Shown piece after piece: positions 55,579-64,000 of a stretch of 64,000 bases of DNA. The notes beneath the pieces are model-generated. The model worked only from the letters and a program-made list of their open reading frames with translations. It made no database searches and was not told where the DNA came from. This DNA comes from Escherichia phage PGN6866, in sequence record MT127620; one strand, written 5' to 3'. Position numbers and translations under genes: made by a program. Numbering within the stretch: the first letter of the stretch is position 1; every line of letters starts with the position of its first letter.

Positions 55579-55596
55579 ATTTCCTCTCTTTGAATT

Positions 55597-55622
55597 TAAA
55601 AAAGGACTCTCCGAAAAGAGTC
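55597..55622 (-). terminator. Terminator-like hairpin (gacucu-uuucgg-agaguc + U-run on minus strand)
   Basis: 6-bp stem followed by cuuuuuu. Confidence 0.45.
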
Positions 55623-55685
55623 AAGCTTTAAATACAAAAAGATATTACCCAATATCTGTGGATAACCTGCTCTTAAAATATCTAT

Positions 55686-55799
55686 CCGACGGATGTTCGA
55701 GGAATGTTCCTCTCCCTAGCATCGGCCCCATACGGGAAATATATTAAGATTAGGTTAGTTGAGTCAGAATAACTCACATAGCCCTCCGAAGAAGGCTAT
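55686..55799 (-). repeat. Conserved composite intergenic element, copy A
   Basis: Shares GGATGTTCGAG...CTCTCCCTAGC and CTCACATAGCCCT-hairpin blocks, same spacing, with copy at 61574-61678. Confidence 0.6.
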
Positions 55800-55813
55800 A
55801 GGCGTTACTACAA

Positions 55814-58025: not shown

Positions 58026-58053
58026 ACATCCTCCAATTAGCTATTATTCAATT

Positions 58054-58199
58054 TGGTTACAGGTGTAGGATTCGAACCTACGCTCGGACTCCCTAGCCAT
58101 CACCAAAGGAATGCATCCAATGGGCATACGGTCATTCGACCACGGGCGACTGCTTTACCGTAGACTCTGCATTACTGAGTCCCATAAGCTATACCTGTA
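58054..58199 (-). ncRNA. tRNA-like element (147 nt): canonical T-arm, 7-bp acceptor-like closing stem, encoded CCA, ~70 nt extra internal sequence
   Basis: 5' tacaggt pairs with 3' acctgta; T-arm gtagg-ttcgaat-cctac; ends a-cca; no canonical D or anticodon arm found. Confidence 0.3.
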
Positions 58200-58559
58200 A
58201 TTAAAAGGTTGTTCCACATTTACCCTAAAGTTATTGGGGAGTACACTAGCTCTGGGCCACGCTGTAGATATCGGCCTACCTTCCACAGCTAATCAGCTAA
58301 TGTACTCTCCTAATAGTTTATGAATAGGGGGAGGGGACGAATCCTCCCTTATCCTATTAATTAATATTGCATGTAAGACCTAACAATCGGTTGCCTTTGT
58401 AGGAATAAGCGTTATGCTAATCCAGCACTAAACTCCCGCCCCCTTAGTGGGCTGGGTTATTAAAGGGTAACGCCCTTATGGGCTAGTTACATGAATGTTA
58501 GTTTGATAGGAGATCTGAAGTCCTATCTCAAAGGACTCTCGTAAGAATCCTTCACGATA

Positions 58560-58691
58560 TTACTTATTCATCTCTCGTCGGCTATCTCTCCAAGCCAACC
58601 AAGTGTAGGTTTTCAGTTCTTCAAAGTCTTCTGGAGAGAATAGATACTCTTTGAAGGTGTTTCCAAACCACTCTAAAAATTCTTTAGTCAT
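58560..58691 (-). CDS. Small hypothetical protein (43 aa)
   Basis: Hand-translated; TAATG coupling to upstream gene. Confidence 0.3.
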   Translation of the reverse strand: MTKEFLEWFGNTFKEYLFSPEDFEELKTYTWLAWRDSRREMNK

Positions 58692-60950: not shown

Positions 60951-60985
60951 TAATTAAAACAACAAAGGCTGCCCGAAGGCAGCCT
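60951..60985 (-). terminator. Rho-independent terminator (aggcugcc-uucg-ggcagccu + U-rich tail on minus strand)
   Basis: Perfect 8-bp stem with UUCG loop. Confidence 0.6.
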
Positions 60986-60989
60986 CTCT

Positions 60990-61241
60990 TTATTGACTCA
61001 CACCACGAATCAGATGATTCTGTAGCGTCCCGTCTTCTGCATTATACAGGAATGCGAACATCAACTCCTTAGCCACATCTCTTGAGCAATTAAGACACTT
61101 GGAGATTTGCGTTAGTTGCATGTTACGTTCAGTGTGTTCCATCAAGGCAATGCGAATGATTTCTCGCATACCTATTACATGAATTGTTTTAACCGGCATA
61201 GGTCCAATTGCCTTGCTTGTTACGGATGGCTGACATTGCAT
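60990..61241 (-). CDS. Small hypothetical protein (start may be internal Met at 61199)
   Basis: ORF. Confidence 0.5.
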   Translation of the reverse strand: MQCQPSVTSKAIGPMPVKTIHVIGMREIIRIALMEHTERNMQLTQISKCLNCSRDVAKELMFAFLYNAEDGTLQNHLIRGVSQ

Positions 61242-61329
61242 GAATCCAGAAGCCTTCCAGTTTCAGAGCACCATTAGCTACTGCATCCATACGTTCAGGG
61301 CGGTTCATACGTTTGGTTGATATTTTCAT
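61189..61329 (-). CDS. Small hypothetical protein (46 aa)
   Basis: Hand-translated; weak RBS. Confidence 0.3.
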   Translation of the reverse strand: MKISTKRMNRPERMDAVANGALKLEGFWIHAMSAIRNKQGNWTYAG

Positions 61330-61573
61330 ACCTATCTCTCTTTGTTAGTGGAGGCATTATTGCCAGTTGATATAAGGGATAGCCCTAGTCAGTAGACTAA
61401 TCCTGACCGCGTACTCATTGCCGACCCTCTCTGCCTAAGAGTTCAGGTTCTAGAGCTATCTCTTATTCCAACTGGTGAAGACTCCCTACCCCTAGGAAGT
61501 CTCCTGAATCCCAAACCAATATGTACCCCTACATATCAGAAAGTCTTTCGAAAATTAACAGGTTTTAGTCTAA

Positions 61574-61678
61574 CACCGGATGTTCGAGCAAGCTCTCCCT
61601 AGCGGTGTGGCATATGCCTGAATTAATAAGTTAATGAGGAACACCCTCACATAGCCCTCTGATAAACACAAGGGCTAT
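61574..61678 (-). repeat. Conserved composite intergenic element, copy B
   Basis: See copy A at 55686-55799. Confidence 0.6.
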
Positions 61679-61687
61679 AAGTCGGTG

Positions 61688-61906
61688 TTACTTTTGAGTC
61701 AAATACAAATCAGGGCGAGGCATAACAGTGGTTGATGGATTGAAATTACCAACATAACCAGTGCTTAGATTGGCAGCCCTACGTAGTCCATTAGAGAGAT
61801 CGTCATCTAGCATCAGCCAGAATTTTTGATCATAAGAGAAAACATCTCCCCCTTTAAGGTCTTCCACATTTGCATATTTAGGAGTCTCAACTACTTTAAT
61901 TTCCAT
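61688..61906 (-). CDS. Small protein, paralogous family member
   Basis: VEDLKGGDVF ... ANLSTG pattern. Confidence 0.5.
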   Translation of the reverse strand: MEIKVVETPKYANVEDLKGGDVFSYDQKFWLMLDDDLSNGLRRAANLSTGYVGNFNPSTTVMPRPDLYLTQK

Positions 61907-63376: not shown

Positions 63377-64000
63377 TTACCACTCGTAACTTACACCAGC
63401 GCCCAGAACAGCGTCACTCTCTGAAGTCATTGCCACTGATGCTTTAGTTACTACGTTTTCATTGAAACGAGCACTAACACCAACAGCAAGAGCAGATTCA
63501 CCATCGTAAGCACCTACCCCAGCACCAACAGAGAAAGCAGATCCTTGACTTACTTGCGGGATGTTAGCCATTGCAGCCACGCCAGAAATACCAGCAGAGG
63601 CATGATCACGGTTACGGTCTACTTGTTTTTGCAAAGAAGCAAAACGTTTGTTGGTGGATTGTTCCAGAGCTTTGATGGATTTGGCGTTAGCATTAACGGC
63701 AGACATATCTGCATCTTTACCATTTTTGCCATTTAATCCGTCAACGCCATTCAAGCCTGCTGCACCAGTTAGGCCAGTTTCGCCTTTCTTACCATCTGCA
63801 CCAGAATCACCTTTTTCACCTTGAGCGCCATCTTTACCATCAATGCCATCTTTACCATCAATGCCATCTTTACCATCAATGCCATCTTTACCATCAATGC
63901 CATCTTTACCATCAATGCCATCTTTACCATCAATGCCATCTTTACCATCAATGCCATCTTTACCATCAATGCCATCTTTACCATCAATGCCATCTTTACC
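63377..64000 (-). CDS. Collagen-like (Gly-X-Y) repeat protein with YadA-type C-terminal anchor domain; N-terminus beyond window
   Basis: Frame is open upstream of the track TTG start and reads continuous G-X-Y triplets; C-terminus AGISGVAAMANIPQ...SVGAGVGAY...AVGVSARFNEN...GAGVSYEW. Confidence 0.6.
   Translation of the reverse strand, partial: GKDGIDGKDGIDGKDGIDGKDGIDGKDGIDGKDGIDGKDGIDGKDGIDGKDGIDGKDGAQGEKGDSGADGKKGETGLTGAAGLNGVDGLNGKNGKDADMSAVNANAKSIKALEQSTNKRFASLQKQVDRNRDHASAGISGVAAMANIPQVSQGSAFSVGAGVGAYDGESALAVGVSARFNENVVTKASVAMTSESDAVLGAGVSYEW
63826..64000. repeat. Perfect 18-bp tandem repeat (atcaatgccatctttacc, ~10 copies, continues past window end)
   Basis: Identical units; encode (GKDGID)n on the minus strand. 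Confidence 0.9.

Follow-up and report, generated by a model that had tools for sequence, protein, structure and literature searches.

To our knowledge, few RNA signals are known to reprogramme bacterial RNA polymerase, namely nut, put, EAR and the leaders tied to rrn boxA or to LoaP, and each of these has given general lessons on elongation control. The nut and put signals come two to a genome, as nutL/nutR and putL/putR; within nut, boxA stands on the transcript just ahead of a hairpin, boxB, which joins a 5-bp GC stem to a GNRA-like pentaloop recognised by the N protein through its arginine-rich motif. The put RNA works in cis by contacting the zinc-binding domain of the RNA polymerase beta′ subunit, with no phage protein involved. 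Close in anatomy are also the early RNase III sites of phages T7 and T3, where conserved internal loops between covarying stems make up the classic architecture of the T7 sites, and where RNase III substrates typically extend over about two helical turns. The put RNA of phage HK022 is ~70 nt long and consists of two long stem-loops and a triplex (PMC9378689).

The window, meaning the whole 64,000-nt stretch of DNA that was analysed, belongs to a phiEco32-like coliphage (Kuravirus, Gordonclarkvirinae) with 92-95% identity to SU10, phiEco32 and ShigP1 by megablast, and its coordinates are approximately the phiEco32 coordinates minus 6264. phiEco32 is a well-studied model of phage takeover of host transcription via gp36 and gp79. 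Its kind encodes a primase-helicase of its own, and no phage RNA polymerase is annotated in phiEco32-like phages, neither single-subunit nor T7-type. The early cluster is transcribed by the host sigma70 RNA polymerase from four promoters at the right end (PMC8948821, PMC4281155), and the middle and late genes by way of the phage sigma factor gp36, with the promoter motif tAATGTAtA (PMC8948821, PMC4281155, PMC12276001). Early transcription yields long polycistronic transcripts, made by host RNA polymerase from promoters at the genome end (PMC8948821); in a study of phage 7-11, early transcripts span almost half of the genome, and the antitermination strategy "remains to be defined" (PMC8948821). 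A literature search found no Kuravirus transcriptome.

Two copies of an intergenic element in the early gene cluster

A preliminary description of this DNA had proposed a conserved cassette present in two intergenic copies, and the analysis confirms it: the conserved blocks occur together at both sites and follow in the same order.

55682-55808, 127 nt, minus strand: RNA element, copy A, flanked by the gp91 and gp90 homologues, 123.5 bits with covariance model R1
61569-61687, 119 nt, minus strand: RNA element, copy B, flanked by the gp113 and gp112 homologues, 124.5 bits with R1

The positions had thus been given correctly, though the limits listed here are slightly wider than those first drawn. 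The surrounding gaps measure 235 bp for copy A (55579-55813) and 358 bp for copy B (61330-61687). By exact search, the 64 kb contain just two instances of each of three blocks, the 11-mers GCTAGGGAGAG and CTCGAACATCC and a 13-mer, AGGGCTATGTGAG; these are always co-located, in the same order and on the minus strand, and only at copies A and B. A minus-strand stop codon lies 8-15 nt before the start of each copy, which bears out the earlier remark that the copies sit shortly 3′ of such a codon. The genes around both copies are all on the minus strand and make up the leftward early gene cluster, and each copy is, judging from this gene arrangement, part of the leftward early polycistronic mRNA.

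The genome-wide motif search that had been suggested as a check was run on the 64 kb and on the whole phiEco32 genome and returned two copies in each, with no more in phiEco32. Only two copies were found per Kuravirus genome by exact and mismatch motif searches and by model R1, while EcoN5 has three copies because of a gene-block duplication and 7-11 has a single copy. The flanking genes gave no sign of paralogy, with no BLASTP match between gp91 and gp113 or between gp90 and gp112. Neither gap holds a hidden ORF, every frame being interrupted by 4-10 stops. Rfam release 15 gave no match in the window at gathering thresholds, and permissive E-value scans of both gaps gave chance-level matches only; the element is undescribed and is without an Rfam family. 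The sites at 58088 and 61484, taken earlier for related TAGGGAGTC copies, are present but are not copies of the element: the 58088 site falls within a tRNA-like structure and the 61484 site within the copy-B leader hairpin, and the short TAGGGAGTC motif, with mismatches allowed, is found 13 times against 14.4 expected in shuffles, which is no excess.

Anatomy of the folded RNA

Each copy is predicted to fold into a conserved four-hairpin RNA. In the folds of both copies, read in the mRNA sense, the order is HP1, 1 nt, HP2, an A/U-rich linker, HP3 and HP4, with the following parts.

55778-55799, minus strand: copy A HP1, AUAGCCUUC-UUCG-GAGGGCUAU, 9 bp with a UUCG tetraloop, from the fold
55760-55776, minus strand: copy A HP2, UGAGU-uauucug-ACUCA, from the fold
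55737-55759, minus strand: copy A linker, A/U-rich, starting ACUAACC, single-stranded in all folds
55727-55736, minus strand: copy A HP3, mini-hairpin CCC-GUAU-GGG
55686-55725, minus strand: copy A HP4, outer stem CCGAUG/CGUCGG, 7x7 internal loop, inner hairpin GAGGA-acau-UCCUC, from the fold
55713-55719, minus strand: 5′ strand of the copy A internal loop, CUAGGGA, invariant except for the last base, A or C
55692-55698, minus strand: 3′ strand of the copy A internal loop, GAACAUC, invariant except for the first base, G or A
61651-61678, minus strand: copy B HP1, AUAGCCCU-12 nt-AGGGCUAU
61635-61649, minus strand: copy B HP2, UGAGG-guguu-CCUCA
61609-61618, minus strand: copy B HP3, GGC-AUAU-GCC
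61574-61607, minus strand: copy B HP4, outer stem CACCG/CGGUG, internal loop CUAGGGA/GAACAUC, inner hairpin GAG-cuug-CUC

HP1 reads AUAGCC...GGCUAU in both copies and has a C(UUCG)G tetraloop in copy A; UUCG and UACG tetraloops both occur. The linker consensus CAMYUAAC is kept in alignments, the linker starting as (C)AMYUAAC. Against shuffled sequences, the minus-strand folds score z = -2.3 and -3.0, and the plus-strand fold of copy A scores +0.1.

A third gap of the window, at 58290-58560, has a related plan of hairpin, hairpin, ACUAAC and mini-hairpin without the loop motif, a layout also kept in the homologue from PKM.Hi.22.6 and in others, so that the first half of the element may be generic transcript punctuation.

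Covariation and conservation across phages

By BLAST, the copy-A gap is represented in 103 phage records, among them those of Salmonella phages from another family, Grimontviridae (7-11, SE131 and pSal-SNUABM-01), in which the gap is 69-74% identical; homologues of copy B were found in Kuravirus and Suseptimavirus records. The conservation in relatives on which the cassette idea had been made to depend is therefore present, extending over these 103 records and into metagenomic lineages. Over 12 kb compared with Suseptimavirus EK010, no segment of the window is more similar than the copy-A gap (85%) and the copy-B gap (84%), and many flanking genes cannot be aligned at all. Only three segments of the window can be aligned with 7-11, copy A being one of them, and the protein of the neighbouring gene gp92 shares no more than 35-62% identity with homologues from the 7-11 group.

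The covariance model R1 spans 138 positions with 26 pairs; every copy scores 114-129 bits with it, and it also detects four diverged copies (70-89 bits) on metagenomic phage contigs chosen on other grounds. Pairing was counted in a model-guided alignment of 37 distinct sequences over 21 pairs (HP1, HP3 and both HP4 helices), HP2 being excluded because the alignment misregisters it. Standard pairs fill 99.5% of 764 cells, a share that falls to 30-44% once the 3′ partners are shifted by 1-3 columns, and both sides change in 10 of the 21 pairs. The covariation score is 0.388 as opposed to 0.139 in shuffles, none of 500 shuffles scoring as high, in an alignment that is itself fitted to R1 and whose 37 sequences stand for only about six lineages.

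All four stems covary. In the upper stem of HP1, UC/GA and ACU/AGU are seen, U.G changes to U-A or C-G, and AUAGCC/GGCUAU becomes ACAGCC/GGCUGU. HP2, inspected by eye, comes in six compensating versions (GAGU/ACUC, GAGC/GCUC, GAGG/CCUC, GAGUUA/UAACUC, GGGA/UCCC and GGGUU/AACCC). HP3 covaries as CCC/GGG, GGC/GCC and GCC/GGC around a RUAU or UAAU loop, and both the outer and the inner stem of HP4 covary, the outer stem in four versions. U.G pairs are present in HP1 in 13 sequences and in the outer stem of HP4 in 19; on the opposite strand these would be C.A mismatches, and the strand is therefore fixed. These data demonstrate RNA structure and selective constraint. The earlier view of a conserved, functional cassette that is non-coding was right, as was its emphasis on the transcribed minus strand.

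Pattern scans of IMG/VR and of metagenomes returned only kuravirus-like or 7-11-like copies and random matches in GC-rich coding sequence. R1 is negative in Crifsvirus, in Privateervirus and in PKM.Hi.22.6 (65 of 76 kb searched), and in the regions fetched the element is absent from the related phages GAP52, ECO319P1, Privateervirus and PKM.Hi.22.6.

The invariant internal loop of HP4

The 7x7 internal loop of HP4, CUAGGG[A/C] opposite [G/A]AACAUC, is shared by all 37 distinct homologues, in Kuravirus, Suseptimavirus, the Salmonella phages 7-11 and pSal-SNUABM-01, and two metagenomic lineages, and the loop stays unchanged even though the inner helix switches from GAG/CUC to GGG/CCC. Its two variable positions change in concert, face each other and adjoin the inner helix, where the facing pair is A.G, A.A or C.A, with changes in at least three independent lineages, and is never C-G. 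Substitution among A.G, A.A and C.A is what a sheared (trans Hoogsteen/sugar-edge) pair allows. The loop probably stacks as non-Watson-Crick pairs, starting with tandem sheared G.A beside the inner helix, where the neighbouring G opposite A would complete the tandem G.A motif. Tandem G.A motifs are typical sites of protein binding or tertiary contact. From its invariance among the homologues, we infer that the HP4 internal loop is the functional core of the element. Likeness to the hammerhead, the K-turn, the sarcin-ricin loop and 5S loop E was considered and provisionally rejected, key consensus positions being mismatched.

Downstream terminator-like hairpins, leader context and the gp112 family

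The surroundings of the two copies contain the following features.

55597-55622, minus strand: terminator-like hairpin GACUCUUUUCGGAGAGUC followed by U6, directly before the ribosome-binding site (RBS) of the gp90 homologue, from the terminator scan
55657-55665, minus strand: perfect DnaA box TTATCCACA, ~17 nt after copy A
60964-60987, minus strand: strong terminator-like hairpin of 10 bp with a UUCG loop, then GUUGUUUU, after the gp112 and gp111 genes
61189-61329, minus strand: gp112 homologue, basic and 46 aa long, encoded by the first gene downstream of copy B
61386-61452, minus strand: leader segment with ~80% identity to the RNA that separates nutL from the N gene (gene 24) in P22-like phages

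The terminator-like hairpin that follows copy A lies ~65 nt past it, with its hairpin part at 55605-55622, outside the coordinates first given for the cassette. Its place is conserved: the order of element, 55-70 nt, GC hairpin with a U-rich tract, and RBS recurs in five lineages (Kuravirus, Suseptimavirus, the 7-11 group including pSal-SNUABM-01, L055/56 and L057/58). The sequence of this hairpin varies by lineage, its stem covaries and the U-tract is retained, and in 7-11 it is annotated as a terminator. Since it stands directly before the RBS, the downstream genes must be expressed by read-through. Alternative pairing of the riboswitch or RAT type was ruled out on reading the sequences, the element and the downstream terminator stem sharing no conserved overlap. 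The strong terminator-like site at 60964-60987 is also present in phiEco32, which in addition has strong terminator-like sites between its early promoters and copy B. The single copy of 7-11 lies ~19 kb downstream of the early promoters of that phage. At the DnaA-box site, GGTTATCCACA is kept in 7-11, pSal-SNUABM-01 and Suseptimavirus.

The leader that follows copy B resembles that of the N gene in P22-like phages, the similarity also taking in the GGTTTGGG block. In phage L, BTP1, SE1 and others, the matching RNA sits immediately past the boxB of nutL and before gene 24 (N), so placed that copy B occupies the nutL position relative to the shared leader RNA. In the predicted fold, the P22-like N leader forms a long hairpin with imperfect pairing, of the RNase III type.

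Next comes gp112, of a family with the invariant core KRMNRPERM..NG..K, whose longer relatives have an arginine- and lysine-rich N-terminus, and it gave no match to Pfam, PDB or a functionally annotated PHROG. On a lambdoid metagenomic contig (L070), a member of this family lies between nutL, a textbook site with boxA GCTCTTTAACAA and a hairpin, and an N-like gene (PHROG 271, E = 2e-13). There the family member is a separate ORF upstream of the real N, on which ground gp112 was rejected as an N homologue; as gene order presents it, gp112 is a small protein associated with the N region and not N itself. Four metagenomic contigs with diverged gp112 genes have a diverged element 0.4-1.4 kb upstream of each, a gp112-like gene is present in every element-bearing genome checked, and in the regions fetched from Crifsvirus and Privateervirus relatives there is neither gp112 gene nor element. 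Strict co-occurrence fails in one direction, with gp112-like genes lacking the element in PKM.Hi.22.6 (65 of 76 kb searched), L068 and L070-L072, and a partnership between gp112 and the RNA is therefore only a candidate.

A putative antitermination RNA

The context of the element, that is, the order of element, terminator and RBS and the nutL position of copy B, points to transcription control. With a probability of roughly 0.35, we read the element as a new cis-acting RNA for processive antitermination, which would act in the manner of nut and put and be a member of neither group. In this mechanism, the emerging element RNA would stay bound to the elongation complex of the host RNA polymerase, either by itself, as the HK022 put RNA does, or together with a small phage or host protein, as in lambda nut. 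The bound complex would then ignore intrinsic terminators, at 60964-60987 after copy B and at 55597-55622 after copy A, and transcription from the few sigma70 promoters at the right genome end would thereby reach the downstream early and middle genes.

The resemblance to the putL and putR sites of HK022 is in the overall design. Both are structured RNAs, cis-acting in put and presumably so in the element, and each is found twice, in similar form, within early operons of a phage that depends on host RNA polymerase; both have stems with conserved internal loops or bulges and lie upstream of terminators that need read-through; and in both a dedicated N-type protein is not evident. In form they differ, the element having ~125 nt, four hairpins and a symmetric 7x7 loop, and R1 has no match at E <= 10 in the whole HK022 genome. 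The put sites are located near PL and PR, whereas the element copies are kilobases from mapped promoters.

With the nut sites of lambda and P22, the element shares the position of copy B relative to the homologue of the P22-like N leader and, as the next gene, a member of the family that on L070 is found between nutL and N. As in lambda, the element lies in an early operon upstream of terminator-like hairpins, behind the first small genes comes a strong terminator-like hairpin, as tL1 comes after N, and a second copy stands further along the operon; the number of two per genome is common to nut, put and the element. The components of a nut site were sought without success. No minus-strand match to boxA (CGCUCUUA / UGCUCUUUAACA; GCTCTTWA) occurs near either copy, the only nearby GCTCTTWA match (55669-55676) being on the antisense strand, and the same search did see true boxA in the lambdoid controls L005 and L070. 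HP3 has a 3-bp (at most 4-bp) stem and a 4-nt RUAU/UAAU loop, unlike boxB. The N proteins of BTP1 and L070 gave no tblastn match in the window or in phiEco32, and PHROG scans of 25 early ORFs found no N-like gene. In contrast to nut, the conserved determinant of the element is an internal loop.

This lack of a boxA, a boxB-type hairpin and an N or Q homologue in the window and in phiEco32 speaks against antitermination. In phiEco32, terminator-like sites lie upstream of copy B, and the element could therefore not help there. Also on this side of the balance are the missing R1 match in HK022, the single copy of 7-11, far from the early promoters of that phage, the gp112-like genes that stand without the element, the similar layout at 58290-58560, and the related GAP52, ECO319P1, Privateervirus and PKM.Hi.22.6, which are without the element. 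More tentative still, with the odds clearly against it, is the fuller proposition that the element represents a new class of antiterminator RNA in virulent podophages, with the invariant tandem-G.A loop as its determinant, maybe read together with a gp112-family protein.

Alternative explanations

An RNA processing site or small RNA, as the preliminary description had suggested among its options, is a live option. In the first form of this idea, which we consider unlikely but to be taken seriously, the element would be a punctuation cassette for mRNA processing and stability: cleavage would fall in the linker (RNase E) or in HP4 (RNase III), HP1 and HP2 would shield the 3′ end of the upstream message, HP3 and HP4 would form a protective 5′ structure on the downstream one, and the internal loop would serve as a recognition or single-cut site like the early RNase III sites of T7. 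The two stable hairpins without a U-tract right behind the stop codon fit this well, as does a linker that is unpaired and A/U-rich in all folds, and a similar layout is seen at 58290-58560 and in the PKM.Hi.22.6 homologue. Within the copy-B leader, moreover, a homologue of the P22-like N leader forms a long hairpin of RNase III type, which makes processing plausible in these gaps. The T7 and T3 early sites are likewise intergenic hairpins in long early polycistronic mRNA, with several similar copies per genome and a conserved internal-loop sequence between variable paired stems. The element departs from them in its far shorter Watson-Crick helices, its two extra upstream hairpins and its mini-hairpin. 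HP4 consists of 5-7 bp, 7 non-canonical positions and 3-5 bp, which makes ~18 stacked positions only if the loop pairs non-canonically; by themselves, its Watson-Crick helices of 5-7 bp and 3-5 bp fall well short of the ~two helical turns of an RNase III substrate. Generic end protection also leaves unexplained an invariant 14-nt loop with isosteric-type covariation across phage families, and the conserved terminator 55-70 nt downstream.

It is improbable, to a greater degree, that the element, or HP3 and HP4, is released from the operon together with the sequence up to the downstream terminator as a stable, trans-acting non-coding RNA, either a decoy titrating a host or phage RNA-binding protein through the loop or an sRNA with GGUUAUCCACA as its seed. 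From Kuravirus to 7-11, the order is that of a structured 5′ module, an unpaired conserved 11-mer, UUUAAAG, and a terminator with a U-tail. Such a layout is the usual anatomy of sRNAs of the Hfq or ProQ type, and several relatives encode proteins with a ProQ/FinO domain. Copy B, however, has no nearby terminator and a wholly different downstream sequence, no conserved promoter was found, and the GGUUAUCCACA stretch is missing from copy B and from the metagenomic lineages; a terminator facing the RBS would, in addition, starve all downstream genes unless read through.

The terminator-plus-promoter cassette of the preliminary description, with TAGGGAGA as a T7-like initiation sequence, is largely refuted, and we regard it as very improbable. 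A hairpin does stand right behind the stop codon, and copy A has weak sigma70-like hexamers, CTGACT-18-TATATT (9/12 match). HP1 is nonetheless followed by GUGAGUUAUUCU in copy A and GUGAGGGUGUUC in copy B and is not called by the terminator scan; lacking a U-tract, it does not qualify as an intrinsic terminator, and the true terminator-like hairpin is further downstream. The T7-like reading of TAGGGAGA is inapplicable, because phiEco32-like phages use host RNA polymerase, with sigma70 or gp36 (tAATGTAtA), and their known promoters are located elsewhere. With no T7-type polymerase, the promoter half of the proposal does not stand: the copy A hexamers are not kept in copy B, Suseptimavirus or 7-11, and the motif is paired into the covarying structure, GCUAGGGAGAG being a strand of the internal loop.

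Just as remote is an element acting at the DNA level, as a replication origin or single-strand initiation signal formed of ssDNA hairpins and an adjacent DnaA box, for which the perfect DnaA box ~17 nt from copy A, conserved across families, the A/T-rich linker and the strand-specific structures, also possible for ssDNA signals, could be cited, but a DnaA box is missing from copy B and from the metagenomic copies, RNA hallmarks such as UNCG tetraloops and frequent G.U pairs are present, the structured strand is always mRNA-sense, and the phages encode their own primase-helicase.

Implications for phiEco32-like and 7-11-like phages

The element is a small, precise and testable candidate for the way in which the long early operon passes its terminators, and in it the 14-nt loop offers a target for mutation and the natural compensatory variants offer controls. 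Should it turn out to be a processing site or a decoy RNA instead of an antiterminator, it would still be a new and strongly constrained motif with unusual non-Watson-Crick covariation that is not in Rfam. It is also relevant to the engineering of therapeutic kuraviruses, where intergenic regions serve as insertion sites for payloads. If the antitermination reading is true, the element would account for early transcripts that run tens of kilobases past intrinsic terminators in phiEco32-like and 7-11-like phages.

Copies of the element and their immediate surroundings

The four-hairpin element is found in the window as copy A, between the gp91 and gp90 homologues, and copy B, between the gp113 and gp112 homologues, and in phage EcoN5 it is present in three copies because a block consisting of gp91, element A, gp90 and gp89 has been duplicated in tandem (L017 7267-9755). 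In copy B (61569-61690, minus strand), the 3′ strand of the outer stem of the fourth hairpin, HP4, reads CGGUGUUA and can pair with the proximal CACCG; an identical (UAA)CACCG at the extreme 5′ end of the element provides a second partner that would close the whole 119-nt RNA. This long-range pairing is favoured in the minimum free energy folds of most B copies and may reflect a second fold of the RNA; nothing equivalent exists in copy A. In the interval that separates copy A from the terminator downstream of it lies the following sequence, conserved in the Salmonella phages 7-11 and pSal-SNUABM-01 and in Suseptimavirus, and missing at copy B and in the metagenomic lineages:

55657-55665, minus strand: perfect high-affinity DnaA-box sequence TTATCCACA, inside GGTTATCCACA

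This sequence may be a DnaA site or, alternatively, an RNA segment conserved as a single strand.

Other structured regions

Two further structures were located on the minus strand:

58290-58560, minus strand: third long structured intergenic RNA (also at L018 4195-4440 and in L015, L055 and L057)
58050-58215, minus strand: tRNA-like structure with T-arm, acceptor-like stem and A-CCA

The first comprises two hairpins, the earlier one terminator-like, together with AAACUAAC, a mini-hairpin (GCCC-AUAA-GGGC) and more stems. Suseptimavirus, the Salmonella phage PKM.Hi.22.6 and metagenomic phages keep this RNA, which is laid out like the first half of the two-copy element but has no invariant loop. 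The second, with a total length of ~150 nt, combines a perfect T-arm, GTAGGTTCGAATCCTAC, with an acceptor-like stem of 7-8 bp (TACAGGT...ACCTGTA) followed by A-CCA. ARAGORN called no tRNA here and Rfam made no call, its sole match being a partial tRNA at 14.8 bits; the phiEco32 counterpart is a gap without annotation (64741-65031). This structure could be a disrupted tRNA, an intron-bearing tRNA or a tRNA mimic.

At the right edge of the window, the BLAST match between 63786-63993 (minus strand) and the metagenomic lineage L055 forms a ladder with a step of 18 nt, which indicates an 18-nt (6-codon) tandem repeat within the ORF. Beyond the window, the phiEco32 locus (L003) contains:

L003 32786-34731 (phiEco32 72786-74731): 1.9-kb non-coding region
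L003 31864-31837, 30536-30519 and 30450-30431: terminator-like hairpins

Three sigma70 promoters close to consensus lie in the non-coding region, and several strong terminator-like hairpins follow downstream of it, ahead of copy B.

Connections to antitermination regions

Homologues of gp112, the first gene after copy B, and a neighbouring small gene were found at:

L070 6840-7548 region (metagenomic lambdoid contig), L068 7243-7422 and L071 9911-10087: small gp112-family ORFs
L053 2121-2336 (7-11 gp136): CxxC-rich 'antitermination protein Q-like' small gene (PHROG 6060, E = 3e-16)
L057 8490-8621 (one metagenomic lineage): the same CxxC-rich Q-like small gene

The three ORFs encode 58-59 aa, start with MRYI and share an arginine-rich N-terminus and an RMNRPERMD core; that of L070 is flanked by nutL and an N-like gene. 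They constitute an uncharacterised small protein family tied to N-antitermination regions. In 7-11, gp136 adjoins the gp112 homologue; neither the window nor phiEco32 has a homologue of gp136. The leader of copy B also matches that of P22-like phages:

61386-61452 and about 61500-61515, minus strand: leader segments matching L004/L005 1485-1567

Here, the leader of a virulent kuravirus shares ~80% nucleotide identity with the leader that runs from nutL to N in P22-like temperate phages (L, BTP1, SE1, ST160 and others). The P22-like leader folds as a long RNase III-type hairpin. This identity points to a regulatory RNA module that is common to both or was exchanged.
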